From the sequence record NZ_CP024179.1: a DNA stretch of 42,981 nucleotides, one strand, 5' to 3'. The position numbers and the translations under genes were made by a program. Positions 2,323 through 17,682 of this stretch are shown here, piece by piece (the first letter of the stretch is position 1; each line of letters begins with the position of its first letter). A model generated the notes under the pieces. The model was given only the letters and a program-made list of their open reading frames with translations. It was not told the DNA's origin and did no database searches. Source of the stretch: a plasmid.

Positions 2323-3306
2323 ATGTCTTTAACCGCGCAAACCAGCAAATAGAGCTACCAAGACTGGCTCAATTAGCTCAAAACACAGATTCGCTCATCT
2401 CAACAATGAGCCATACTTGCGGTTAATCAAGAACTGGTGATGTTATATTGGCAAATCGGACAAAACATCCTACAACGTCAAGACCAACAAGGTTGAGGTG
2501 CAAAAGTTATTGACAGACTATCCAAAGACCTATCCGCCGAATTCCCAGAAATCAAAGGCTTTTCTACTCGCAACCTAAAATATATGCGTAAGTTTGCCGA
2601 AGCATGGCAAGATAAGCAAATAGTGCAGCAGGCTGTTGCACTATTACCATGGGGTCATAATCTTATATTATTGGATAAATTTTCTGACAATGAAACAAGA
2701 CTATGGTACGCCCAAAAAGCCATTAAACATGATTGGTCACGCAATGTCTTAGTCCATCAAATAGAAAGCGGTTTACTAGAACGCACAGGACAAGCCGTTA
2801 ATAATTTTTCGCAGACATTGCCAGAGATACAGTCAGATTTGGCGACTCAAACTTTCAAAGATCCTTATATTTTTGACTTTCTCAGCTTAGGCGAAGCCTA
2901 TCATGAACGAGAATTAGAAACCGCTTTAACTCAGCATATTATGGCATTTTTACTTGAGTTAGGGACAGGTTTTGCGTTTGTTGGCAAACAGCGGCATATT
3001 GAAGTTGGTGGTGACGACTTTTATATCGATTTGCTTTTCTATCATCTGCAACTTCGCTGTTACGTTGTCATCGAATTGAAAACAGGCGATTTTAAACCTG
3101 AGCATATCGGGCAACTCAATTTATACGTGACTGCAGTCGATAGGCAACTCAAAACCGAACATGACACACCAACAATAGGCTTGTTACTTTCTAAAAGTCG
3201 TAACGAAGTCGTGGTTGAATATGCACTCAATCAGACCCCCCAGCCGATTGGCGTTGCAGTTTATCAATTAGAAAAAATGTTGAATGAGTTAGAATTAGGC
3301 AAATAA
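2323..3306 (+). pseudogene. YhcG/DUF1016-like PD-(D/E)XK nuclease gene with four in-frame stop codons (TAG 2350, TAG 2374, TGA 2407, TGA 2494) and no frameshift
   Basis: A single frame reads MSLTAQTSK*SYQDWLN*LKTQIRSSQQ*AILAVNQELVMLYWQIGQNILQRQDQQG*GAKVIDRLSKDLSAEFPEIKGFSTRNLKYMRKFAEAW and continues into the 240-aa ORF at 2584..3306 (ELKTGDF, YHERELE). It matches the DUF1016 architecture end to end. An SD-like sequence aagagaaaa precedes the ATG at 2323. Confidence 0.75.
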
Positions 3307-3363: not shown

Positions 3364-5858
3364 ATGAGTGAAATCTACGAATCTGACATCGAACAAATAG
3401 CTATCGAACAACTCCAAGCCATCGGCTATCGCCACGTTTAAGGCGTCGATATCGAACCCTACGGCATAAAACCGCTACGAGCCTATAGCCAAGTTTTGCT
3501 CCAAGACAATGTCCTGCAAGCTATCGCTACCATCAACCCACAACTTACCCCAGAACAATGACTTGAAGCCTATTAGCGTATCAGCCAAAATAACCAACTC
3601 ACCACACCCAATAATGTCAGCAATAATTTAGCCTTATGTCAATGGTGTTCTACACAGGCAAAATCGTGCTTGCCATGAATAACCCAACCGTGGTTATATT
3701 GACCGACCGTAACGACTTAGACGACTAGCTTTTTACTACATTCTCGGCATCGGTTGAATTGCTTAGGCAATCTCCAAAACAAGCCGGAGATCGAGAGCAG
3801 CTCAAAGAACTACTTAAAGTCAATTCTGGCGGTGTCATTTTTACCACCATTCAAAAATTCCAGCCAGAAGACGGTAGCAATGTCTATGACACGCTGTCCG
3901 AACGCCATAACATCATCGTCATCGCCGACGAAGCACACCGCTCGCAATATGGCTTTACCGCCAAAGAAGTCGATGTCAAAAACGATGCTGGTGACGTGAC
4001 AGGCAAACGCACGGTTTATGGTTTTGCCAAATATTTGCGTGATGCCTTGCCCAATGCCACTTATCTAGGCTTTACAGGCACACCGATTGAAAAAAACGAC
4101 GTCAACACCCCAGCGGTGTTTGGTGATTATGTTGATATTTACGACATCTCCCAAGCCGTTGAAGATGGGGCAACGGTGCGGATTTTCTATGAATCACGGC
4201 TTGCCAAAGTGGCGGTTAGTGACGAAGGCAAAAAATTGATAGCCGACTTTGATGAAGAATTTAACGAAGACGAACTCACCGCCACCCAACAAGCACGAGC
4301 CAAATGGGTCAAAGCCGAAGCCTTAATCGGTAGCCATGACCGTATCCAAGCGGTCGCTGCCGACATCGTACAACATTTTGAACAACGCCTATTTGCCAAT
4401 GCCAACCAAGGTAAAGGCATGATTGTTGCCATGTCTCGGCGGATTGCAGTGGATTTGTACAATGCGATAATTGCATTACGCCCAGCGTGGAGCGGTGGTG
4501 ATTTATACGACGGCGTCATCAAAGTGATTATGACCTCATCGGCAGCAGATGGGGCAGCTCTTGCCAAGCATCATACAACGAAAAAAGACCGCCAAATTTT
4601 AGCCAACCGTATGAAATACCCAGAGGATAAGCTCAAACTGGTTATCGTGCGGGATATGTGGCTAACAGGCTTTGACGCTCCCAGTATGCACACGCTTTAC
4701 ATCGATAAACCGATGAAAGGTCATAACTTAATGCAAGCGATTGCCCGTGTCAATCGGGTGTACAAGGATAAAGCAGGGGGCTTGATCGTTGATTATCTGG
4801 GTATTGCTGCCGATCTGAAAGAAGCCTTGAGCTTTTACTCAGATGCTGGCGGTAAGGGCGACCCAGCCGTGGTGCAAGATGAAGCCGTCATTATCATGAA
4901 AGAAAAACTGGAAGTGTTAGACGGCATTATGCACGGTTACGACTATCACAAATACTTTACCTCAGACACCGCTGAAAAACTCAAAATCATTCTCGAATCC
5001 GAAGATTTTATCTTAGGCATTGAGCAAGGGGAAGGAAAGACCCGTTTTATTCGTGCCGTAAGCTCGCTCAGTCAATCTTTCGCCCTAGCCGTACCCCATC
5101 CTACCGCAATGGAAAATGCACCTCTTGTAGCGTATTTCCAAGCGGTTAAAGCATGTCTTGCCAAATTTGACGAAAATTCACCCAATCCAATAGGGATTAG
5201 CGACACCGAATTAGAAACCAGAGTCAGACAAACAATCGACCAAGCCTTGGTCAGTGAAAAGGTCGTCGATATCTTTGATGCCGCTGGTATTCAAAAACCC
5301 GACATCTCTATCTTATCTGATGAATTCATGGAAGAAATGCGAGATTATGAACACAAAAACATCGCTCTAGAAACTCTTAAAAAACTACTGAATGATGAAA
5401 TAAAAGTACGAGAGCAACACAGCGTTACCCAAGGCAAAAAACTCATGGAGATGCTCAACAACGCTATCAAAGGTTATCAAAATAAAGTACTTACCGCTGC
5501 AGAGGTCATCGAAGAACTTATCAAATTAGCAAAAGAAATCAAGGAATCTGATAGTTTGGCTAATGAACTTAAACTCACTGATTTTGAATATGCGTTTTAC
5601 TCTGCGGTTGCCGAAAATGACAGTGCCAAAGAACTCATGGGTAAAGATAAATTGCGAGAACTCGCCATTGTTTTAACATCAACCATTCGTAATAACATAA
5701 GTGTTGATTGGACAATCAAAGAATCTGCAAGGGCTAAAATTCGTACTGTAGTCAAAAGATTACTAAGAAAATATGGCTATCCGCCTGATATGGAGCTTTT
5801 AGCTACAGAACTCGTATTACATCAAGCAGAGGTAATTGCTGATCAATTAGTTAGCTAA
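3364..5858 (+). pseudogene. hsdR: Type I restriction enzyme R subunit (HsdR) remnant with at least six in-frame stops, a frame change and a probable internal deletion of the endonuclease domain; the C-terminal 699 codons (3759..5858) remain intact
   Basis: The N-terminus MSEIYESDIEQIAIEQLQAIGYRHV*GVDIEP...LTPEQ*LEAY*RISQ is HsdR-like, with stops at 3439, 3559 and 3574. After a frame switch near 3600 the reading is [44 protein letters not shown], with stops at 3612, 3624 and 3726. This is followed by the DEAHRSQYG (motif II) and LGFTGTP (motif III) motifs, then the C-terminal helical domain. The Walker A GSGKS is replaced by scrambled AT-rich sequence (caataatgtcagcaataattta). There is no room for the PD-(D/E)XK domain between residue ~75 and HTQ. 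Confidence 0.8.
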
Positions 5859-5896: not shown

Positions 5897-6282
5897 ATAA
5901 GACGACGTTTCATTACCTCACTATTTTAATGAGAAAAGTAGGTTTTTAATGTTTTTAAATACTTTTAATAGTTTTTAAATAAGCCGCAAGTCGCCTACAC
6001 CAAGGCTTATATAAGATATTAGACGACGTTTAGTTACCTATAAGACGACGTTTAGTTACCTATAAGACGACGTTTAGTTACCTATAAGACGACATTTAAT
6101 TACCCATAAGACGACGTTTAGTTACCCATAAGACGACGTTTAGTTACCTTAAATAAAGATATCTAAATATATATTATTAGACGACATTTAGTTACCTTAA
6201 AATTTTTAAAATAATAGGACGACAAATTGTTACCTCAGGATTGATTCAGATAAATTTATTATAAGACGACATTTTATTACCA
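5897..6282 (+). repeat. Extended iteron/oriV region including outlying degenerate iterons (5897, 6176, 6214, 6261) and AT-rich tracts
   Basis: Degenerate copies are aTAAGACGACGTTTcaTTACCT, attAGACGACaTTTAGTTACCT, ataGGACGACaaaTtGTTACCT and ATAAGACGACaTTTtaTTACCa. AT-rich sequence with repeated gtttttaa lies at 5860-6000. Confidence 0.7.
6018..6149 (+). repeat. Six tandem 22-bp iterons (consensus ATAAGACGACGTTTAGTTACCT), the core of the plasmid replication origin
   Basis: The direct repeats sit at 6018, 6040, 6062, 6084, 6106 and 6128. Four are identical and two carry 2-3 substitutions. They lie immediately upstream of a Rep_3 initiator gene. Confidence 0.9.
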
Positions 6283-6384: not shown

Positions 6385-7341
6385 ATGTCTAAATCTTCAA
6401 CTCAAAAAGATATAGTCGTTAAGTCTAATAGACTTAATTCTGCACTTCAAAATTTAAGCCTAGCTGAAATACGAATTATCCAATTAGCGATTGTAGATGC
6501 TCGTGAAAGTGGAAAAGGTCTAGATCCATCTACGCCTTTAACAATTAGTGCGTCACGCTATGTAGAGGTATTTGAAACTACGCGACAAAATGCCTATATG
6601 AGGATTAAAGAAACTGAAGAGACATTGTTTAATCGCCGATTTAGCTTTATTGATGAAGATGGTCTACTGGTAAAAAGTCGTTGGTTGTCTCAAGTGCGGT
6701 ATTTAGATAACCAAGGTGAAATTGAATTATCTTTTACGCCAGCGGTAGTCAAGGGAATTAGCAGAATTGATGGTGCAGTTGATTTTTTTACTCAGTATTC
6801 TTTACAACAAACATCTGGTTTGGATAGCGCTTATTCAACTCGGTTATATGAATTACTTGTTCAATGGAAAGCGGCAAAAAAGACCCCTTTATTTGAATTA
6901 GAAACATTTAGAGCGCAGTTAGGATTGCAAGAAAACGAATATGCTAGGATGTTTGATTTTAAAAAACGTGTCTTAGATATGGCGGTTAATGAAATTAATA
7001 AAGTGACTGACTTAAAAGTGTCCTACCAACAAATTAAAGAGGGACGGAGTATCATAGGATTTATTTTTACGGTAACTTTAAAAAATAAAGAAGCACCATT
7101 AAAGGATGTAAAACGTGATACCAATACCCTCGATATGTTCGTGCCAATGACCGATAGTCAGCGTTACCATTTTGCAAAAAAGTTATCCAAGCTTCATGAA
7201 TTATCTTACCTTGCTAAAGGGGAGGCAGGTCGAAACTATGACGTGTTTGCCGAACAAATTGCCAATGAGCTTTCAGATCCTGAGCGAGTTAAGTTTTATG
7301 AAAAGTACTTAGTGCAAGTAGGATTTAAAAAATCAATTTGA
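6385..7341 (+). CDS. repB: Rep_3-family plasmid replication initiator (RepB-like, iteron-binding)
   Basis: It carries the N-terminal Rep_3 signature VVKSNRLNSALQNLSLAEIRIIQLAI and sits adjacent to the iterons. Confidence 0.9.
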   Translation: MSKSSTQKDIVVKSNRLNSALQNLSLAEIRIIQLAIVDARESGKGLDPSTPLTISASRYVEVFETTRQNAYMRIKETEETLFNRRFSFIDEDGLLVKSRWLSQVRYLDNQGEIELSFTPAVVKGISRIDGAVDFFTQYSLQQTSGLDSAYSTRLYELLVQWKAAKKTPLFELETFRAQLGLQENEYARMFDFKKRVLDMAVNEINKVTDLKVSYQQIKEGRSIIGFIFTVTLKNKEAPLKDVKRDTNTLDMFVPMTDSQRYHFAKKLSKLHELSYLAKGEAGRNYDVFAEQIANELSDPERVKFYEKYLVQVGFKKSI

Positions 7342-7399
7342 AATTTAGGATTAATGAAATTAGCATAGTCATACCAATTATCAATATGACGAACCTATT

Positions 7400-7852
7400 A
7401 TGACCGTCACCATCCTTCACCGACTCGAAGCCCAAAGCTACCAACCCATTCCTTTGTTTTTAGAACCCATTCCAGCAGGATTTCCCTCACCTGCTGAAGG
7501 CTATGTTGAAGAATGTGTGGATTTAAATGACTTGTGTATCGATCATCCTAATGCCACTTTCTTAGTCAGAGTCGATGGATTGTCGATGATTGATGCCGGT
7601 ATCTATCCCAATGACTTGCTGGTGGTGGATCGGAGTCTTGAGCCCCAACATGGCGACATTATCGTCGCTCGCTTATTTAACGAATTCACCGTTAAAGAGC
7701 TCAATCTTTATCCTTATCCAAGTTTAATTGCCCATAACGAATCCTTTGAAGACATTACCTTAGTCGGTGAAGTTGATTTTGAAGTATTTGGTGTGGTCAC
7801 TAATGTCATTCGCCCCATTGGTCGCGGCACTAAACGTCCTATCTACAAGTAA
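7400..7852 (+). CDS. umuD: UmuD-like S24 peptidase (translesion polymerase V accessory subunit)
   Basis: The LexA/UmuD C-terminal domain is present (VDGLSMIDAGIYPNDLLVVDRS...GDIIVA). It lies upstream of umuC. Confidence 0.85.
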   Translation: MTVTILHRLEAQSYQPIPLFLEPIPAGFPSPAEGYVEECVDLNDLCIDHPNATFLVRVDGLSMIDAGIYPNDLLVVDRSLEPQHGDIIVARLFNEFTVKELNLYPYPSLIAHNESFEDITLVGEVDFEVFGVVTNVIRPIGRGTKRPIYK

Positions 7853-7992
7853 GTTTTCATTTCATCTAATTTCTTATCGCTGTTTACAATTCACACGACG
7901 GTCATTGTCGTTTAGTCGTCATTTGTCATTTTGATGACTTGTCTTTTTGCCTAAACTAGTCTTAATTCTTTTTGCCATTGTTATGAACCCTT

Positions 7993-9312
7993 ATGTACGC
8001 CTTAATTGATTGCAATAGCTTTTATGCGTCTTGCGAAAAGCTGTTTCGTCCTGATTTAAAACGTCGACCGGTAGTTGTGTTATCCAATAACGATGGCTGT
8101 GTGGTGGCTAGATCCGCGGAGGCTAAAGCATTGGGGATTAAGATGGGCATCCCTTACTTTCAGATCAAAGACTTTCTACAGCAGCATCGTGTTGCAGTAT
8201 TTAGCTCCAATTACGCCTTGTATGCTGATATGTCAGCGCGGGTGATGAATACACTTGAACAGCTGTGTCCTGACGTGGAAGTGTATTCCATTGATGAAGC
8301 GTTTTTATACCTAGGTCGCTATCCAGCGGCGCTTAACGATTTAACAGCTTACGCCAAGCTCATTAAAACTACCGTTGAGCGTCATACTGGCATTCCAGTA
8401 GGGGTTGGGGTAGGGAAGACCAAGACCTTGGCGAAACTGGCCAATTACGCCGCTAAAAAGTATCCAGCGACGCAAGGGATTTGTGTGTTAGACAAGGAAA
8501 GCTGGATTGAGCGGCTGATGGCTATCACACCGGTTGAAGAGGTATGGGGGATTGGTCGTCAGCATACCAAAAAGCTTCACAGTCTAGGTATTACCACGGT
8601 TGAGCAGTTTGCCGCGATGCCACATAGCTTAGTGCGTCAGCATTTTAGTGTGGTCATGGAGCGGACCAATTTAGAATTGAATGGGGTGATGTGTTTAGGT
8701 TTAGAAGCGGCAATGGCTAAACAAGAGATTGTGTCATCGCGTTCGTTTTCTAAAAAAATCAGCGAACTTGAAGATTTAAGCCAAGCGGTGATGGGTCATG
8801 TGTCTAAAGCGGCCGTTAAACTGCGTAAGCAGCAAAGCGTGTGTAAGATACTGGTGGTGTTTGCCAAGACCAGTGCCTTTAACCCCAATGAGCCTTACCA
8901 AAGTATTCGTGGTCAATATCAGTTTATTAATGCCACCTGTGATACCCGGGTGATGATTGCTGGCGCTAGACAAGTACTAGAGCGGATTTATAAACCTAAT
9001 TTAAAGTATGCCAAAGCCGGTGTCATGCTGTGTGCGATTCAAGATCAGGCTACCATCGTTGATGATTTGTTTGAGAAGCCTGACCTCTTAAAACAGCAGC
9101 AATCACAAAAGCTAATGGCAATGATGGATGCCATTAATCAGCAGATGGCGCACCAGAGCAAAGCTCAAGCCAAAGGTTCATCTAAAGGCAATGGTGGCCG
9201 ATTGTATATTGCCAGTACCGGCATAGCCAAGCAGCAAGACTGGCAGATGAATCGAGCGTTTTTAAGCCCAAGCTATACCACCAAACTGTCTGATTTATTA
9301 ACTGTGCATTAA
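7993..9312 (+). CDS. umuC: Y-family DNA polymerase, UmuC-like (Pol V catalytic subunit)
   Basis: The N-terminus [41 protein letters not shown] is the classic UmuC/DinB palm sequence. Confidence 0.9.
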
Positions 9313-9332
9313 TTTAACCAAGAGAATCCTGT

Positions 9333-10013
9333 ATGTGTGCCAACTTTCAACCGATTACCCAAGCGCAAGCGTCACGCTTTACCAATCAGCAGTTAAGCTT
9401 TGACTTTAAAGACGATATCTATCCGGGTTACGAGGCACCGATACTATTTGCCAATATCGGTGACCCAGCAGAGTGGCGATCTGCGATGTTTGGTATGATT
9501 CCTAAATGGGCCAAAGACACCAGCTTTGCTAAACACACCTACAATGCCCGTAGTGAAACCGTTGCCGGTAAACCAAGTTTTAAACACGCTTGGTACAATA
9601 ACCAGTTTGCGTTAATTCCGGTACAAACCATCTATGAGCCTAAATACATTAATGGTAAAGCACATCGCTATGGCATTCACCGCGAAGATAATGAACCTTT
9701 TACCGTGGCTGGGTTATATGAGATGGTAAAAATTGGCGATCAATTGATTCGCTCTATGACTATGCTCACTATTAATGCCGATCAGCATCCGTTTATGTCC
9801 CAGTTTCATAAACCTGAAGATGAAAAACGCTCGATTGTGGTGATTGAACCTGAGCATCGAACGGATTGGCTTAACATGACGCATGAGAACGCATTTGAGC
9901 TTTTGTTACCAATGGGAGAGGGATATACAGCCGAATACCGTCCAAAGCCGTCAAAAACGCATGACAGTGCGCCTAATGAAGATTTATTGGATTTACTGTT
10001 GCCTAAGTCGTAA
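9333..10013 (+). CDS. yedK: SOS-response-associated peptidase (SRAP/YedK, abasic-site DNA-protein crosslinking)
   Basis: It starts Met-Cys (catalytic Cys2) and carries SRAP motifs (FGMIPKWA, NARSET, FTVAGLYE). There is a 20-bp gap after umuC. Confidence 0.85.
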   Translation: MCANFQPITQAQASRFTNQQLSFDFKDDIYPGYEAPILFANIGDPAEWRSAMFGMIPKWAKDTSFAKHTYNARSETVAGKPSFKHAWYNNQFALIPVQTIYEPKYINGKAHRYGIHREDNEPFTVAGLYEMVKIGDQLIRSMTMLTINADQHPFMSQFHKPEDEKRSIVVIEPEHRTDWLNMTHENAFELLLPMGEGYTAEYRPKPSKTHDSAPNEDLLDLLLPKS

Positions 10014-10019
10014 TAAAAT

Positions 10020-10673
10020 ATGGGGATAGACGATTTAAACCATCAGCAGCAAATGAGTGGCTTGGCTAATAAACAACCCATCAGTCATTTGACCAAAGAT
10101 GAGCAGATTGCCGTCATCTTTGATCGGGTAGCTGCCTATAACCAAACACATGACACCAGCAAACCATTATTCTTTGATACCGAAACGACCGGAGGCGGCA
10201 GGGAAGACCAAATCATCGAAATTGCGTTTTGTGATAGTGATAGAAATCTGATTATCGATACGCTAATCTACACAGATAGACCTTCAAGTACAGGCGCATT
10301 TAAGGTGCATGGTATTTATCCTCATGAGCTGATAGGTAAACCTACCTTTATTGATATTCAACCCGCGATTGTACAATTGCTCAAAGGACGCACCTTGTAT
10401 GCCTATAACGCAAACTTTGATATTCGTATGATGGGACAATCTGGGCATAAACTTCGCTTGCAGCAAGCTGAAGTAAAATGCCTGTGTAAGCAGTTTGCTG
10501 ATTTTATCGGGCAATACTCACCGTATTTTAAAGCCAATCGCTATTTTAGCCTAAGCAAGGCTATGGCCCACTTTGGGGTAGAGCATAGCAATGCGCACCG
10601 AGCAGCAGCCGATGCGTTAGCCTGTGTTACGGTATGGCAGGGGATGGTGAAAAGTCATCATTGGGATTATTGA
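10020..10673 (+). CDS. DEDDh 3'-5' exonuclease (DnaQ/epsilon-like)
   Basis: It has Exo I FFDTETTG, Exo II YNANFDIRMM and Exo III HRAAADALA. It lies 6 bp after the SRAP gene, so the two are probably in one operon. Confidence 0.8.
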   Translation: MGIDDLNHQQQMSGLANKQPISHLTKDEQIAVIFDRVAAYNQTHDTSKPLFFDTETTGGGREDQIIEIAFCDSDRNLIIDTLIYTDRPSSTGAFKVHGIYPHELIGKPTFIDIQPAIVQLLKGRTLYAYNANFDIRMMGQSGHKLRLQQAEVKCLCKQFADFIGQYSPYFKANRYFSLSKAMAHFGVEHSNAHRAAADALACVTVWQGMVKSHHWDY

Positions 10674-10725
10674 ATGGCGTATGATACTGAAATACAGCTA
10701 TGTAGTAGGGAACAGAGCAACCTAA

Positions 10726-10965
10726 TTAATAGGGTTGCTCTTTTTTATTGTGCTGGGATTCGTCATCATCTACATACAAAATAATATCACCTGGTGCGCA
10801 ATCTAAATACTTACATAATTTATCAATGGCATCGATATCAATTTTTATCACATCATTGTTATACAAACGATAAAGGGTCGAACGACTTATATCCAAATCT
10901 CTATCAATATCGGCAACTTTAAGACCACGTTGTGCCAATAAAACAGGCAAATTTATCTTTATCAC
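10726..10965 (-). CDS. Small XRE/Cro-type HTH transcriptional regulator (HTH_26, YozG-like)
   Basis: The HTH reads LLAQRGLKVADIDRDLDISRSTLYRLYNN...LCKYLDCAPGDI. It is divergent from two small unknown ORFs. Confidence 0.75.
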   Translation of the reverse strand: MIKINLPVLLAQRGLKVADIDRDLDISRSTLYRLYNNDVIKIDIDAIDKLCKYLDCAPGDIILYVDDDESQHNKKEQPY

Positions 10966-10969
10966 AATA

Positions 10970-11070
10970 AAATCCCTAAAAATGAAAATAAATACTTGAT
11001 TTAGGAATAAAATAATATTAACATAGTTCCTAAATTAGGGAATAAATTTTATTTTTAGATATAAATTCCC
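10970..11070. promoter_or_regulatory. Divergent promoter/operator region with nested inverted repeats (TCCCTAA...TTAGGGA; TTTAGGAA...TTCCTAAA)
   Basis: atccctaaaaat ... tttaggaataaaataatattaacatagttcctaaattagggaataaa is a symmetric arrangement between the XRE gene and ORF 11141. Confidence 0.4.
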
Positions 11071-11140
11071 AATTTCAACTATTATCCCATACTTGAGATA
11101 ATTTTCCAATCGAACAACAAAAAATTCAAGGAGCACAAAA

Positions 11141-11425
11141 ATGCACCCGAACCCCGTCATCCAACACATCTATGACCAACTTGACCAAAGAAAGAACCGC
11201 CTACAGCAAATTAATAAGCTTACAAGCCAACTAATCAAAGAACAGCGGATACAACCAGGTAACAACCTTTACCTGTTTCTAGGACTCATCAAACGCTGCA
11301 ACAACACCCAAGCCATTCAAACATGGATTTCAGAAATATTAGACGACATAGACGTAAACGACGACCAAGAAAAATACCAACAGCTTGAACATAAATTTCT
11401 AAAACTTATGCCAGAAATAGCATAG
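11141..11425 (+). CDS. Hypothetical protein (94 aa), no recognisable domain
   Basis: A clean ORF preceded by aaggagca (SD-like). It is divergent from the XRE regulator. Confidence 0.5.
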   Translation: MHPNPVIQHIYDQLDQRKNRLQQINKLTSQLIKEQRIQPGNNLYLFLGLIKRCNNTQAIQTWISEILDDIDVNDDQEKYQQLEHKFLKLMPEIA

Positions 11426-11484: not shown

Positions 11485-11850
11485 ATGGACTACAAATACC
11501 TCGCAAAAAATCACATCAGTGAACAACAAACCATCATTGTGCGTGACTACTTTGAAACCCCACTAGAGACTCACGGCAATCATTTAGATCACATCACACA
11601 TATCTGTCAGTATTACAACATCAGTGCACCGTTACTTAGCGAAATGGTCAGCCATTTCAAAATCTATGACACCCAAACCCACTGTAGAGAGTGCAACATC
11701 ATGCGACAAATCTACGAACCAACCTATAACTATCAGAACCAGAAATTCAATTGGATATGCGATGACTGTCATCAATTCATTCAACAGCGATCCAATCGCA
11801 GTTTTTCATTGGCGCAATATTATAATGAAGACGATGACTGTCCCTTCTAA
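11485..11850 (+). CDS. Hypothetical protein (121 aa) with a CxxC-x20-CxxC zinc-ribbon and an His-rich segment
   Basis: CRECN...(20 aa)...CDDCH; HGNHLDHITH. SD aaaggaaa lies 7 nt upstream. Confidence 0.5.
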   Translation: MDYKYLAKNHISEQQTIIVRDYFETPLETHGNHLDHITHICQYYNISAPLLSEMVSHFKIYDTQTHCRECNIMRQIYEPTYNYQNQKFNWICDDCHQFIQQRSNRSFSLAQYYNEDDDCPF

Positions 11851-11958: not shown

Positions 11959-12289
11959 CATCTCAAAAATATTTAACCCACAACAGACCCACACTAAAGA
12001 TTCCACCAAAAAGATTGTACCGATCCAACCAAATTCACTAAAAATTTCTACTATCTTTAGCAAATCATACTCTCTTTCAAATAATTAAAAGAATAGGGGT
12101 GGATTTATCGAAAACAAATTTATCCTACATAGAAAGTCTCACAACTCATCAAAGAACTATCACCAACTCAGATACAGAACCGCATCAATTTCATGAGATG
12201 ACAACCAAAAATTAGTATGCTAACCTAATCAATATAAAGGTTCGGAAATCGACATAGCCAGCACATGCAGAGACACCAAATTTACTAAC

Positions 12290-12420
12290 GTAAATTGACT
12301 GTCTCTGCGTCCTGGCAAAGGGGGCTTGCCCCCTTTTGAAACCCCCAGCACCCATTTATCGCTTCACATAGTTGCGATTAAAATGGGTGCTTATTGGGGA
12401 GACCCCAAACCCCCTTTAAC
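12290..12420 (+). other. oriT: oriT-like region: GC-rich nested stem-loops upstream of mbeC/mbeA; possible ColE1-type nic motif CTGG|C at 12312-12316
   Basis: There is a hairpin aaaggggg-cttg-cccccttt (12319-12338). There is an 11-bp inverted repeat agcacccattt/aaatgggtgct enclosing atcgc...gcgat. This lies immediately 5' of the mob genes. Confidence 0.45.
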
Positions 12421-12458: not shown

Positions 12459-12977
12459 ATGGCACAACAATCAGCCGAAAAAAAGCAAAGCCAGGACAAA
12501 GTATCGGTAAAAAAATCATCAAAAAAACTACGAGATAAGCGGCTTAACATTCGCTTTAGTGACGAAGAATTTTCTATGCTCGAAGCCAAAGCTGAAGGGA
12601 TAAGTTTGGCTCGCTATGCTCGTGCAATTTTAACTAAGGGAAAGGTGACAAGACGTGAACGGGATTTTCCGACGATTGACCCAAGACTATTACAACAACT
12701 GCACGCTATGGGTAAAAATTTAAATCAACTCGTCCGTTATACCCATGAGCAAGCCAATGCCAAACGTCCGATTGATACCCTAAATTTAGCACTAGCCATT
12801 GATAATATGGCTGAACAATTGGCTAGGTTAAAAGCTCAGTACCAAGTGCCAGAAAATTATTTTAGGGCAGTTGAAGATGAGGATGTTGCGACTGAAGCAA
12901 ATGACTCTGCCACGGATAACCCAATAGAAAGTTCACCCATAAACAATGGCAATCTAAATAATCATGTGATTGGATGA
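12459..12977 (+). CDS. mbeC: MobC/MbeC-family relaxosome accessory protein
   Basis: RLNIRFSDEEFSMLEAKAEGISLARYARAILTKG matches the MobC (PF05713) motif. It overlaps the relaxase start. Confidence 0.8.
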   Translation: MAQQSAEKKQSQDKVSVKKSSKKLRDKRLNIRFSDEEFSMLEAKAEGISLARYARAILTKGKVTRRERDFPTIDPRLLQQLHAMGKNLNQLVRYTHEQANAKRPIDTLNLALAIDNMAEQLARLKAQYQVPENYFRAVEDEDVATEANDSATDNPIESSPINNGNLNNHVIG

Positions 12978-13992
12978 TGAAATGCTGCTAAAGTTTTTCA
13001 AGCGAGGGGGCACCGATGATGATAGACGCACCTTAGGTGGCAGTGCCGTTAAAAATTATCTACTGGGTACCAACGATCAACCTCGTAAAAAAGCGCGTTT
13101 ACTATTGGGTGATGCTGATGAAGTCACTGAGATTATTAATGGCTTGCCATTTGCCAAAGTTTATACCTCAGGCTGTCTAAGCTTTCATGAAGATGACAAA
13201 CTCGCCGAAGCTCAAAAGTTTGACATCATGGCCGACTTTGAAGCCATGATGTTTGTTGGTCTTGAACCGCATCAATACACCAGTTATTGGGTTGAACATA
13301 CCGATAAAGGTCGGGTCGAGCTTAACTTTGTCTTTCCGAATGTCGAGTTGGTATCGGGCAATCATCTACAAGTCTATTATCACAATCGTGATTTGAACCT
13401 TGTTAATAGCTGGAAAAATTTGACCAATGATAAGTATGGTTTTATCAATCCTTCTGATTTAGAAAACCGTCGGGATGTGACTCCCAGTATTGGTCCAAAT
13501 CTGTTGAAAGACTGGGATCAGTCGAATAAGCAAAAAATTATCGATAAGCTCAAACACTACCAAAGCATTGAGGATTTTAAACAACAACTCACCGATGTGG
13601 TACTAACTCAAGCGGCATTGCGACAACAAACCGATGAGCCTTTAACCTGTCAAGATGACGTTGCAAAATTGCTTGAAGACTTTGGTTTCGAAATCTCTCG
13701 CAGAGGCAAAGACAGTATCAGTATTAAAAACCCTGATCCCACGAAAAAAAATATTAAACTAAAAGGTGTGATTTATGAGCGAGACGCCACCGAATCCGTT
13801 ATTCGATATGTTGCAGAACGCAAAGGCGCAGACCCAGCAGCAAATCAAATCTCAGCAGATGACCGAGCAAAACAGCTTAGACAAGCAGCAGCAACTTTTT
13901 CAAGCGAGCTTGAAAAACGTCGAGAACGACATTATGGGGTCAGCACAGAATTCGGACCATATAGGGCGGTAAGGAATTTTGTCGAGTTTTAA
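12970..13992 (+). CDS. mbeA: ColE1 MbeA-like (MOB_HEN/MOBP5) relaxase, truncated at the 3' end by the Tn3-family insertion; the last ~19 codons are encoded by the transposon IR
   Basis: The N-terminus MLLKFFKRGGTDDDRRTLGGSAVKNYLLG...LPFAKVYTSGCLSFHEDD resembles MbeA (MIVKFH.RG.GGG.G.VDYLLG...FAKKYTSGVLSF). The ORF reads into the IR at 13936 (GVSTEFGPYRAVRNFVEF). Confidence 0.75.
   Translation: MDDEMLLKFFKRGGTDDDRRTLGGSAVKNYLLGTNDQPRKKARLLLGDADEVTEIINGLPFAKVYTSGCLSFHEDDKLAEAQKFDIMADFEAMMFVGLEPHQYTSYWVEHTDKGRVELNFVFPNVELVSGNHLQVYYHNRDLNLVNSWKNLTNDKYGFINPSDLENRRDVTPSIGPNLLKDWDQSNKQKIIDKLKHYQSIEDFKQQLTDVVLTQAALRQQTDEPLTCQDDVAKLLEDFGFEISRRGKDSISIKNPDPTKKNIKLKGVIYERDATESVIRYVAERKGADPAANQISADDRAKQLRQAAATFSSELEKRRERHYGVSTEFGPYRAVRNFVEF
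13775..13972 (+). CDS. Possible overlapping mob accessory ORF within mbeA (MbeB/MbeD-like arrangement), also truncated by the transposon
   Basis: A 65-aa ORF sits in an alternative frame inside the relaxase gene, as in ColE1 mbeB/mbeD. It has no recognisable motif and is Q-rich. Confidence 0.2.
   Translation: MSETPPNPLFDMLQNAKAQTQQQIKSQQMTEQNSLDKQQQLFQASLKNVENDIMGSAQNSDHIGR
13936..13973 (+). repeat. Tn3-family 38-bp terminal inverted repeat (left)
   Basis: This is the GGGG-initiated IR; its exact reverse complement is at 17879..17916. Confidence 0.9.
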
Positions 13993-14049: not shown

Positions 14050-17007
14050 CTAAAGCCGTCTTAGTGGTCTAAACTTCCCATTTCCGATTCTCGCATTACT
14101 TTTCCAAAGGTAATCACCTGTCAAATTGATATGCTCCCAACCTAGGGGTGACAAGTACTGAAGATGGTCAGTATTAATTTCTTGTCCTTGCTCTCGCAAC
14201 GCATTTACTGCCCGCTCAATATACACCGTATTCCACAGCACAATCGCTGCTGTCAGCAGATTTAAGCCACTGGCTCGATAACGTTGCTGCTCAAAGCCAC
14301 GGTCACGAATCTCTCCTAAGCGATTAAAGAACACCACACGGGCTAACGCATTACGGGCTTCACCTTTATTTAACCCTGCTTGTACCCGCCGACGCAGTTC
14401 CTTGCTTTGTAGCCATTGTAAAATAAACAGCGTGCGTTCAATCCGTCCGACTTCTCGTAATGCCAATGCCAAACTATTTTGCCTTGGATAGCTACCCAGT
14501 TTTTTAATCAATAATGAAGCAGTGGCTGTCCCTTGTTTAATGGATGTGGCTAACCGCAAGACATCCGACCAATTGTCTTCAATCACCTTGGTGTTGATTG
14601 TACCACCAATCAAAGGTTTGAGTGCTTGATAAGGATTATGACCTTTTGGGATAAATAGCTTGGTTTCACCCAAATCTTTAATACGAGGGGCAAACTTAAA
14701 TCCAAGTAAGTGCATCAAGGCAAACACATGGTCGGTAAAGCCTGCTGTGTCGGTATAATGCTCTTCAACTTTTAAATCTGATTCATGATACAGCAAGCCA
14801 TCTAGCACATAGGTCGATTCTCGAATACCCACGTTAATCAATTTGCTATGAAATGGGCTATATTGGTCAGAAACATGGGTATAAATTAACCGCCCAGGCT
14901 CTGAACCGTACTTTGGATTGATGTGTCCTGTACTCTCGGCTCTACCACCTGCTTTAAAGCGTTGCCCATCTGAAGATGAGGTTGTGCCATCGCCCCAATG
15001 TCTAGCAAAATCGTTGGTAAATTGGGTATTGGTTAATACACCCAGTGCTGACGCATAGGTTTCATCTCGGATATGCCAAGCTTGCAATCGGGTCAATTTT
15101 GAGTAAGTTGTGCCAGGGCAGGACTCTGCCATCTTCCTAAGCCCTAGGTTAATCCCATCACTTAAAATGGTGGTAAGTAGCAAGTGCTTGTCTTTGGTAG
15201 TCTCATCGGTTTTCAGATGGGTAAATTCATCGCTAAAGCCCGTCCAATCATCGACTTCAAGTAGTAATTCGGTTATTTTGATGTGGGGTAGCATACTGGC
15301 GACTTGCGTAATCAAGGCTTGGGCTGATTCAGGCATTACCGCATCAAGTGGGGTAATTTTTAGTCCTGTAGTCGCTGTAATAGTGGCTTCGGGTAATTTA
15401 TCCGCTTTGGCAAGCTTATTGGTTTGTTTAAGCTCAGTACCTAGCAAGTTTAAACGGCTTTGCAAATAGGTTTGGCAGTCCGCATCAACGGCAATTGGCA
15501 ATGCTTGGGTTTGTATAAGGGATTGGAAGCTGTCTTTAGGTAGCAAGTACTCGTCAAAGGCTTTAAATTGTCGTGAGCCTTGCACCCAAATATCGCCTGA
15601 GCGTAGGGCGTTTTTAAGTTCTGATAGTACGCACAGCTCGTAGTATTTCATATCGATGCCATCATCGGTATAGATAAGCTTATGCCAGCGTGGTTTGATA
15701 AACTGCGTTGGCGGATTGTCAGGCAGTTTACGAGCATTATTTTGGTACATTTCACGCAATACATTGATGGCTTGTAATAGGCTATCTGTGCCACTGGTTG
15801 CATAAAATGGCAGTATTTCTAGCATGGCAGGGGCATACAGACGGACGGTTCTATAGCTGTTATTGATTCGGGGTAAGAAGTCAAAGTCAGGTTGTACGAG
15901 ATTTTCAACTTCAGTAACACTCTGAGCTAGGGTTTCCCATGATATTGCCTGTTCAATCGCCTCCGATAGGTCAAGCTGATTATCCTTGGCTTCAAGCAAC
16001 GCTCGCCCCATGTTCCGAAATAGATACAACATTTCGTTGATGGACTTGCCCGAGTCATGAAATGCCTGTCGATGTTTGTTTCTAGCTTGGTTAAAGATTC
16101 TACCAATGATACGGTTATGCAGTTCGATGATTTCATCAATGATGGTGGCTTTACTCTCGACAACAATTGCAACCAAAGTTGCATAGCGACGATTCGGCTC
16201 AAATTTGGCAAGGTCGGTGGCTTGCATTTGACCGCCTTCACGGGCGATTTTCAAAAGGCGGTTTTGGTGAATCCGCCGTTCGATACCGTAAGGCAAGTCA
16301 AAGGATAGGCAGTATTGTAGCCTATCGATATGAGCATTCATATGACGAGAGTTAGGCTTTAATGGCGATTGGCTTAACCATGCAAGGTGGGTGAGCTTTG
16401 TGCCATCTTTGAGACAGAGTAATTCGTCAAGTTTTGCTAAATGTGTTTGGGTTAAGTCGGCAGTGAGCCGTTCATAGATGATTTTGTTGGCACGGGTGAT
16501 AGCTTCAGCACAGATTTTTTCAATAACAAGTGGCGTTGGTAGTAGGATATGAGTATTTCGTAAATGGCTAATCAGTTGCTGGGCTAAAACAATACCTCTA
16601 TCAGTTTCGACCGCAAGTTGGCTGATGTATTCTACATATCCAGCGTAATTGTTGCGTGAAAAGGTTTGATAGCCAAACAGTTGCTGTAATTCTAGCAAGT
16701 GCTCTCGGCGGGTTTTTTCTCGAAAGCCATAGTCTTCCCAGCTTTGGGGAGAAACTTTAAGCTGTTTGGCAATAAATTTGAGTAGATAGGGGTCAGGTAT
16801 TTCTTTCACGCCTAGGATAATACCTGGATACCGCATATAACAAAGCTGGATGGCAAATCCTAATCGATTGGTATCGCCTCGTTTTTGTTTAATCAGCGAT
16901 AGGTCGGTTTCGCTTAAACTGTAGTGACGAATAAAATCAGTTTGGTTGTCAGGCAATGCCACTAACGACTGCCTTTCTTGGGCAGTTAAAATAGAGCGAC
17001 GAGCCAT
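14050..17007 (-). CDS. tnpA: Tn3-family DDE transposase
   Basis: It is 985 aa. The N-terminus [44 protein letters not shown] is typical of TnpA(Tn3). The C-terminus abuts the left IR. Confidence 0.95.
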
Positions 17008-17070
17008 GGGATTCCTTATTGGTAAAGGTGGCTAGTTAAAAAATGGTGAGCTGAGAATGAATGAAAATCG

Positions 17071-17682
17071 TTAAGGGCTGGTAATGCCAAGCAGTTGTCT
17101 GCCCAGCTGCTTGAGTTCGCCTTTGCCTGTGACATATTGATACAGCGTGCTCACAGCCATATCATCAAGTTCTTTGCAGATATCGGGAATACTACGGGTT
17201 TGGTCGCTCATCAGATGCTGGGCATAACGCAATTTCTCGGCGGTCATCACTCGGGGTCTTCCGCCTTTTCGTCCACGAGCTCTGGCAGCAGCGAGTCCTT
17301 CTTGTACCCGCTGGCGAATGATATTGCGTTCCATTTCAGCAAACGCCGCTTGGATTTGTAAGAAGGCTCTCCCTGTTGGGGTGGTGGTATCCATAGGGGA
17401 GTTGATAGCTTTAAAGCCAATGTCTTTACTGGCTAAATCATCAATCAAGATAATCAGGTCTTTGGCTAATCGCCCCAGTCTATCCAAATCCAGCACGACT
17501 AGCACATCATCAGGTCGTAGGTAAGCCAAGCATTCAGCAAGCCCTGGTCGTTCTGTGTTGCTCCCTGATGCCTTGTCAGTAAAAATCTTCTGACAGCCAA
17601 TCTCGTTTAACGCATCCAGTTGACGGTCAAGCAATTGTTTATCTTCTGCGGTTGAAACTCGGGCATAGCCTATCAAGCTCAT
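17071..17682 (-). CDS. tnpR: Serine recombinase (Tn3-family resolvase TnpR)
   Basis: It has MSLIGYARVSTAEDKQ (catalytic Ser10) and a C-terminal HTH. It is co-directional with and upstream of tnpA. Confidence 0.9.
   Translation of the reverse strand: MSLIGYARVSTAEDKQLLDRQLDALNEIGCQKIFTDKASGSNTERPGLAECLAYLRPDDVLVVLDLDRLGRLAKDLIILIDDLASKDIGFKAINSPMDTTTPTGRAFLQIQAAFAEMERNIIRQRVQEGLAAARARGRKGGRPRVMTAEKLRYAQHLMSDQTRSIPDICKELDDMAVSTLYQYVTGKGELKQLGRQLLGITSP

Follow-up and report, generated by a model that had tools for sequence, protein, structure and literature searches.

Pol V operons on plasmids are a driver of damage-induced mutagenesis and are common beside plasmid leading regions. The classical examples, mucAB of pKM101, impCAB of TP110 and rumAB of R391, are LexA-regulated and translationally coupled, and to our knowledge none of them includes an SRAP or exonuclease gene. 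Here we describe a locus on a Moraxella osloensis plasmid (NZ_CP024179.1; the whole stretch of 42,981 nucleotides that was analysed is called the window below) in which umuD and umuC are followed by an SRAP-family gene and a gene for a DEDDh 3'–5' exonuclease. Like the classical operons, it encodes plasmid-borne UmuD and UmuC homologues between replication/transfer functions and the leading region, here a putative one, but it has no LexA box. A preliminary description of this DNA had read the four genes as one coordinated damage-tolerance module. None of the four is disrupted, the catalytic residues of their products are preserved, and purifying selection acts on all of them; the first three recur together in other genera, and the exonuclease is lineage-specific and is retained in plasmids without this triad. 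We favour, with a probability of roughly 0.6, the explanation that the locus is a Pol V operon (umuD–umuC) with its known SRAP companion, and that its transcription unit has gained an epsilon-like exonuclease gene which comes from the M. osloensis plasmid backbone.

SRAP owes its name to the genomic association of the family with UmuC–UmuD and other mutagenic polymerases (Aravind, Anand and Iyer 2013, PMC3765255). A survey of 2026 once more tied UmuC-like polymerases to SRAP-like proteins, hence the umuDC–SRAP linkage is real, but already known. A fused UmuD+UmuC+SRAP query recovered the same triad order on Pseudomonas plasmids (pQBR55, plas1 of Pseudomonas sp. HS-18 and others) and on Sulfuricella pSCD, where the three genes are, as here, plasmid-borne and near replication/partition genes. 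These triads differ from the M. osloensis locus in that umuD and umuC overlap by 4 bp in pQBR55 and pSCD and lie 7 bp apart in HS-18, whereas a conserved 140-bp spacer separates them here, and in that nothing exonuclease-like follows SRAP in the three plasmids. A permuted SRAP–umuD–umuC order was detected on many Acinetobacter plasmids (e.g. pNDM-32) and in an A. baumannii chromosomal island, in the same bacterial family. The SRAP proteins of these clusters belong to the same subfamily (48–58% identity) and are linked to a UmuD/UmuC pair as here, but in these clusters SRAP leads, the plasmid versions encode a longer S24 protein, and a perfect UmuDAb operator, absent here, is present in the A. 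baumannii copy. The Acinetobacter clusters also lack the exonuclease, so that none was found beside the triads of Pseudomonas, Sulfuricella or Acinetobacter. We found no paper placing umuC and a DnaQ-like exonuclease in one operon, and the literature found on M. osloensis plasmids comprised genome announcements only.

Distribution and decay of the exonuclease gene

The locus consists of umuD (7400–7852, + strand, 150 amino acids (aa), the autoproteolytic Pol V subunit), umuC (7993–9312, +, 439 aa, the Y-family catalytic subunit), the SRAP-family gene (9333–10013, +, 226 aa) and the standalone, epsilon-like exonuclease gene (10020–10673, +, 217 aa). A check of the open reading frames (ORFs) agreed exactly with the four co-oriented intact genes reported earlier, including the intergenic gaps of 140 bp (umuD–umuC), 20 bp (umuC–SRAP) and 6 bp (SRAP–exonuclease).

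The exonuclease clade is narrow. An exhaustive phmmer search shows a drop in score from 363 bits to at most 121, and close relatives were present in only three of 185,579 species genomes, M. osloensis, Enhydrobacter sp. 8BJ and a contig labelled Streptomyces cinereus. This last contig (BMPS01000065.1, strain JCM 3040) is 4.8 kb long and carries an exonuclease (85% identity), the neighbouring helix-turn-helix (HTH) gene (100%) and UmuC/SRAP remnants; its Moraxella-type plasmid genes are most likely contamination of the Streptomyces assembly. Among PLSDB plasmids, SRAP adjoins the exonuclease on 15 and UmuC adjoins it on four, all of them from Moraxella. A fused query had returned 103 apparent UmuC–exonuclease co-occurrences, in which single UmuC alignments ran into the exonuclease part of the query, and a redesigned query reduced these to the four. 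More distant plasmid 3'–5' exonucleases (IncI, IncC, IncP and Burkholderia, approximately 3,000 records) are longer proteins without umuC or SRAP neighbours. The survey of umuC–SRAP–exonuclease co-occurrence proposed in the preliminary description thus gives a divided answer, as umuC and SRAP recur together across genera but the exonuclease adjoins them on Moraxella plasmids only. To judge from these searches, the exonuclease adjoins SRAP and umuC in a single M. osloensis plasmid lineage, by common descent.

Approximately 45 related loci were compared for gene content and decay. They reflect one ancestral order (rep, umuD, umuC, SRAP, exonuclease, HTH on the minus strand, hyp94, hyp121, mob; hyp94 and hyp121 are hypothetical genes) which has decayed stepwise. 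All four genes are intact in the window, CP014235, L037, L038, L046, L047 and the divergent pair L030/L031 (class A), with damaged copies of this class in L016, L017, L018 and L055. In L016 (CP024448, pNP7-5) umuC is interrupted by approximately 121 bp between codons 31 and 32 (4786–4908), and in L018 (CP135139, Moraxella sp. DOX410) umuC and an SRAP fragment lie between identical copies of IS3, an insertion sequence (IS), with the spacer moved 5 kb off. In class B loci UmuD and UmuC are reduced to remnants (aa 81–103 and aa 317–439, respectively) ahead of SRAP and the exonuclease. Class C loci retain a UmuC remnant only (aa 406–439), together with an SRAP gene frameshifted at several different positions and a mostly intact exonuclease. 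Two further loci lack a full SRAP gene: L011 has an IS upstream of the exonuclease, and in L050 only the 3' end of SRAP is left.

In about 20 of the related loci umuDC is deleted, SRAP is often frameshifted and the exonuclease is still intact. Its ratio of non-synonymous to synonymous substitution rates (dN/dS) is 0.07–0.15 with class C and L050 included, and 0.09–0.15 in the copies where the trio has decayed; the corresponding values are 0.05 for umuD (against L030), 0.08 for umuC and 0.12–0.22 for SRAP. Since the exonuclease stays intact and under purifying selection where umuDC has been lost and SRAP pseudogenised, it is under selection in its own right rather than as an obligate fourth member of the unit. 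The module proposed earlier is to this extent only partly upheld, in that the Pol V pair, SRAP and exonuclease are indeed plasmid-borne and intact together, but the last does not depend on the others. The short SRAP–exonuclease gap is not general either. At least two versions of this junction exist, the other having a spacer of approximately 60–75 bp and a different exonuclease N-terminus, so that only one sublineage has the 6-bp gap. A more constant association is with the genes downstream: the exonuclease is always accompanied by the HTH/hyp94 block, even in Faucicola atlantae, and HTH/hyp94/hyp121 synteny is kept in nearly all exonuclease-bearing related loci.

Products of the four genes

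UmuD scores above its curated cutoff (NF007621, 144.7 bits versus 110; Peptidase_S24 PF00717, 1.3e-22), and an ungapped alignment places its cleavage site at Ala26–Gly27 and its catalytic dyad at Ser62/Lys99, corresponding to C24–G25, S60 and K97 of the E. coli protein. UmuC likewise exceeds its subfamily cutoff (NF002955, 480.6 bits versus 431) and contains the IMS (PF00817), IMS_C (PF11799) and DUF4113 (PF13438) domains. The catalytic acids D6 and D101–E102 are present, and the DinB catalytic motifs have their counterparts in the segments IDCNSFYAS and SIDEAF.

The third gene encodes an SRAP domain (PF02586, 5.1e-29; 101.8 bits versus a Pfam gathering score of 27.1). It had been called YedK, but this identification fails: PRK09951 gives only 23 bits against a cutoff of 349, and phmmer matches are to the solved structures 1zn6 and 2f20, not to YedK. 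Its closest structure in the Protein Data Bank (PDB) is 1zn6, and by these comparisons the protein is a member of a 1zn6-like subfamily and not a YedK orthologue. It shares the Pfam family with YedK and HMCES and aligns with them at the Cys2, Asn, Arg and Glu positions, but it falls in another subfamily, with N-termini of the form MCANF/MCSHY. In the window the N-terminus is MCANF. Cys2 is invariant among 14 homologues, as are Asn71, Arg73 and Glu102, which align with N96, R98 and E127 of HMCES. The active-site histidine is less straightforward, as an ungapped profile alignment sets Lys165 at the position of the 2f20 histidine. Just upstream of Lys165 lie His159, which is conserved in at least 90% of homologues, and the invariant His152. 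If there is a 5–6-residue insertion, His159 is the likely canonical histidine (H160 of YedK, H210 of HMCES).

The exonuclease matches RNase_T (PF00929, 8.4e-19) and TIGR00573 (76.5 bits versus a cutoff of 71.5), so that the profile searches advised for this gene and for SRAP both returned the expected families. All three Exo motifs reported earlier are present, with D53 and E55 in Exo I, D134 in Exo II, and H193 and D198 in Exo III (Hx4D), and no catalytic residue is missing. An AlphaFold2 model (mean predicted local distance difference test score, pLDDT, 79) is closest to the exonuclease domain of E. coli Pol III epsilon, with a target-normalised template modelling (TM) score of 0.76–0.78. 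E. coli epsilon (DnaQ) is the best PDB match by both sequence and structure and shares the DnaQ fold and the DEDDh residues; however, identity is only approximately 25%, and the plasmid protein has a one-helix N-terminal extension and falls far short of the epsilon equivalog cutoffs (NF004316, 56 bits versus 196; TIGR01406, 46 versus 222.7). It ends at residue 217, 19 residues past Exo III, and hence lacks the C-terminal tail by which epsilon binds Pol III alpha. Taken on these profile and model comparisons, it is a member of the DnaQ-like DEDDh superfamily and not a true DnaQ epsilon subunit. Its matches in PADLOC and PHROG reflect the generic DEDDh fold only, and were set aside as a guide to function.

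Transcription signals and the umuD–umuC spacer

A consensus scan identified a sigma-70-like promoter candidate for umuD at 7338–7366 (+; TTGAAA-17-TAGCAT). Both its hexamers (-35 and -10) are identical in the divergent L030, where the sequence between and downstream of them differs. At the other end of the locus, a terminator-like hairpin with a 10-bp stem and a T-tract (10714–10741, unstranded) overlaps the stop codon of the convergent HTH gene; its RNA fold has an energy of -25.4 kcal/mol (z = -3.54), and none of 200 shuffled sequences folds as well. No terminator was predicted between the four genes in the scan, in which the + strand calls inside the unit were two weak 5–6 bp stems within umuD and SRAP. 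With a single conserved promoter-like site, no terminator before 10714–10741 and such small gaps, co-transcription of the four genes is plausible.

The preliminary description had proposed two operator sites for a non-LexA regulator, one upstream of umuD and one in the spacer between umuD and umuC. Only the second survives, in modified form. The upstream inverted repeat, GTCATA-N11-TATGAC (7368–7390, unstranded), is exact and unique in the window. Its half-sites resemble those of the DdaA box described below, but with a spacing of N15. It reads GCTGTA...AATGAT in L030, a neutral level of identity, and contains a GTTATA mismatch in L001/CP014235; on this comparison it is probably not an operator. 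A LexA box (CTGT-N8-ACAG) and a UmuDAb box (TTGA-N4-GTWAC-N4-TCAA) were likewise sought in 7300–8000 and neither was found there, with the UmuDAb scan recovering the perfect box of the A. baumannii locus L026 as a positive control.

The 140-bp umuD–umuC spacer (7853–7992, +) has a central core, at approximately 7881–7957, whose conservation greatly exceeds the neutral identity of 0.41 measured at four-fold sites. It is specific to this lineage, occurring on five Moraxella plasmids only; elsewhere umuD and umuC overlap or lie 7–14 bp apart. The reiterated GTCATT/GTCGT motifs noted previously are present at 7895–7940, and a palindrome among them, ACGAC-N7-GTCGT, was flagged for conservation before the DdaA motif was considered. 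The Acinetobacter/Moraxella/Psychrobacter clade lacks LexA and has instead the WYL-family activator DdaA, which binds CGWCA-N5-TGWCG approximately 50 bp upstream of transcription start sites and has been reported to regulate some UmuD genes (PMC12392091, 2025). The spacer palindrome contains CGACG-GTCAT-TGTCG (7896–7910, unstranded), which matches this consensus at 9/10 positions. The orthologous site is CGACA-GTCAT-TGTCG in L030/L031, at 10/10 the only exact matches among 69 loci, and CGACG-ACCAT-CGTCG (8/10) in L001/CP014235. A -10-like hexamer, TAAACT (7952–7957, +), which is a candidate -10 for an internal umuC promoter, lies 42 bp 3' of the box within a conserved block, CTTG..TTTTTGCCTA.ACTA, and reads TACACT in L030 and L001. 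In L030 an 11-bp insertion between the box and the hexamer changes their distance by one helical turn. Together these features mark the spacer palindrome as a candidate DdaA box of a putative internal promoter, from which umuC, SRAP and the exonuclease would be induced by damage. It resembles the boxes of the DdaA regulon (PMC12392091) in being a palindrome of the same type, upstream of DNA-damage genes, in a LexA-less family, but differs in its setting, a plasmid operon in which it would act from between umuD and umuC.

Other readings of the spacer were considered and rejected. It does not behave as a structured RNA (fold z = -1.16, not significant) and contains no small ORF, and as a sequence that is not repeated and is confined to the five Moraxella plasmids it does not resemble a mobile element. 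The iteron-like 8-mer CGTTTAGT is common to the spacer and to the 22-bp iterons of repM, and ACGACG is also shared between them, but neither is conserved in L030.

One-mismatch DdaA-like boxes were also observed between SRAP and umuD in Acinetobacter loci, at 5130–5144 in L009/L010 and at 5673–5687 in L026. In L026, the A. baumannii chromosomal copy, the box lies approximately 75 bp upstream of the perfect UmuDAb operator (5748–5768), which suggests that this SRAP–umuD–umuC cluster may be under dual control.

Under our favoured explanation, the promoter at 7338–7366 would drive umuD, and the spacer would be an inserted regulatory region whose CGWCA-N5-TGWCG-type box recruits DdaA to an internal promoter (-10 TAAACT at 7952). 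After damage, umuC, SRAP and the exonuclease would then be transcribed more strongly, up to the terminator-like hairpin at 10714–10741. RecA-stimulated cleavage of UmuD at Ala26–Gly27 would yield UmuD'2C for lesion bypass, and SRAP would crosslink through Cys2 to abasic sites in single-stranded DNA and shield them. Without its Pol III-binding tail, the exonuclease would act as a free 3'–5' DNA exonuclease. Its primary, independently selected role would be in the plasmid backbone, in the processing of 3' ends during replication, repair or transfer, and editing of Pol V products would be an optional extra and not the reason for the gene's retention. The locus would then probably represent two lineage-specific gains on a known triad, a DdaA-type damage-responsive spacer and a downstream, independently selected exonuclease.

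Several observations weigh against this explanation. Synonymous divergence (dS) between the window and L030 is saturated (at least 1.8), yet both keep the four genes intact and in order, hence long-term co-maintenance in the intact lineage is real; a genuine four-gene unit would look the same. The DdaA component is affected too, as ddaA has reportedly been lost or replaced sporadically within the genus Moraxella (PMC12392091), a sigma-70 consensus scan of the spacer gave no match, with a poor -35 region for the proposed internal promoter, and a one-mismatch DdaA box is expected approximately twice per window by chance. A one-mismatch match alone would thus be at chance level, and the case for DdaA is made by conservation of the box at the orthologous site.

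The alternative closest to these observations is that all four genes form one damage-tolerance module, in which the exonuclease is dedicated to Pol V and SRAP and removes mismatched termini or trims 3' ends at shielded abasic sites. Its co-oriented genes with gaps of 20 and 6 bp and one strong terminator after the exonuclease, the putative damage-inducible box upstream of umuC–SRAP–exonuclease, the predicted structural similarity of the exonuclease to the proofreading subunit epsilon, and the two deeply diverged lineages that keep the four genes under purifying selection would all be expected of such a module. We nevertheless consider it unlikely, as the triads of Pseudomonas, Sulfuricella and Acinetobacter do without the exonuclease, neither SRAP nor UmuC adjoins it on any non-Moraxella PLSDB plasmid, the SRAP–exonuclease junction has at least one other form besides that of 6 bp, and the exonuclease remains intact and constrained after umuDC loss and SRAP pseudogenisation. 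A dedicated editing role is possible, but unsupported by the patterns of distribution or retention. The strongest form of this proposal, a self-contained operon under DdaA for bypass, shielding and editing, in which the exonuclease would be devoted, in trans, to editing or 3'-end processing for plasmid Pol V and for abasic sites protected by SRAP, is in our judgement improbable. If it were true, the mutagenic cost of plasmid translesion synthesis would be limited, and the survival of the exonuclease in decayed copies would reflect a second, moonlighting role.

Returning to the joined-backbone-gene explanation, the locus separates a functional association (umuDC–SRAP) from an inherited one (the exonuclease), and is a caution against inferring modules from a single genome. 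With its DdaA-type-box spacer inserted between umuD and umuC it would be a LexA-less solution to Pol V control. If the box is confirmed, the DdaA regulon would extend to mobile Pol V genes of skin-associated Moraxella. As for the exonuclease gene, it is a conserved part of the plasmid backbone and under selection, and its role would be easily tested.

Neighbouring genes, mobilisation region and replicon

Downstream of the exonuclease the order is HTH (minus strand), hyp94, hyp121, an origin of transfer (oriT)-like core, a NikA-like protein and a truncated relaxase. Samuel et al. (2024) reported leading-region islands flanked by oriT and umuCD homologues, and the exonuclease and its downstream neighbours lie likewise between the umuDC boundary and the oriT-like core, which fits that layout. 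A further alternative is therefore that the exonuclease, HTH, hyp94 and hyp121 constitute a leading-region establishment or anti-defence island, acting on incoming or competing nucleic acids and unrelated to translesion synthesis. The gene order from umuDC to the relaxase, the constant company of the HTH/hyp94 block and the DEDDh matches in PADLOC are consistent with such an island; however, those PADLOC matches, and the PHROG matches with them, extend only to the shared fold, no known anti-defence protein of the exonuclease's type was found, and some MOBP subtypes lack leading-region enrichment (Samuel et al. 2024). In addition, the relaxase is truncated by a Tn3-family transposon, and the sequence of the oriT-like core gave no assignment of the nick strand or, with it, of the polarity of transfer. 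We regard this alternative as doubtful. That the adjacency is functionally meaningless, a decaying relic hitchhiking by the replication origin and only transiently intact, is highly improbable. Damage to umuD, umuC, SRAP or the exonuclease, by deletion, by frameshift, or by truncation through an IS or transposon, is indeed seen in most related loci, but the intact genes show dN/dS of 0.05–0.22 across lineages with saturated dS, and conservation of the spacer regulatory blocks and the promoter hexamers is well over the neutral value.

The HTH gene (10726–10965, -) encodes a Cro/C1-type regulator of the HTH_26 family (PF13443, 1.4e-18). The divergent HTH_26/hyp94 promoter region (10966–11140) contains four to five inverted-orientation copies of TTAGGRAAT (at 10972, 11000, 11027, 11035 and 11065), and these repeats (10972–11075) are plausible operators for the HTH protein. 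A role for this protein in regulating umuD was rejected, as TTAGGRAAT is absent near umuD and its matches across the window are at chance level. Both hyp94 (11141–11425, 94 aa) and hyp121 (11485–11850, 121 aa) lack a family match and are present beside the exonuclease and HTH genes in almost all related plasmids; hyp121 has a CxxC...CxxC zinc-ribbon-like motif.

The oriT-like core (12240–12345) lies 5' of the NikA-like gene and has been conserved between mob lineages whose proteins are only approximately 36–40% identical. Its elements are AGCCAGCA, the inverted repeat GCAGAGACA/TGTCTCTGC, GGGGGC-TT-GCCCCC and CCCCCTYTTGAMACCCC. The MOBP-type relaxase (12970–13992, +) is 340 aa long, compared with more than 800 aa in related plasmids, and ends where a Tn3-family transposase (985 aa) and resolvase begin (14050–17682, -). 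Given this truncation, the plasmid may have lost the capacity to be mobilised.

The replicon is a Moraxella osloensis plasmid, to which AP031473.1 is 99.9% identical over the query. On the 5' side of the Pol V locus the order is ParA, ParB, a PDDEXK nuclease, an N-truncated HsdR, six 22-bp iterons and RepM, the last being of Acinetobacter type and directly upstream of umuD. The six tandem 22-bp iterons (TATAAGACGACGTTTAGTTACC) at 6017–6149, 5' of repM, are typical of a Rep3 origin. The PDDEXK nuclease (2584–3306, +), also upstream of repM, is YhcG-type and N-truncated, and is a PADLOC candidate for PDC-S02. The HsdR remnant (3759–5858, +) is an N-terminally truncated type I restriction R subunit with a TTG start, in which the SWI2_SNF2 profile is matched from position 73, and it is also found in the divergent L030/L031.

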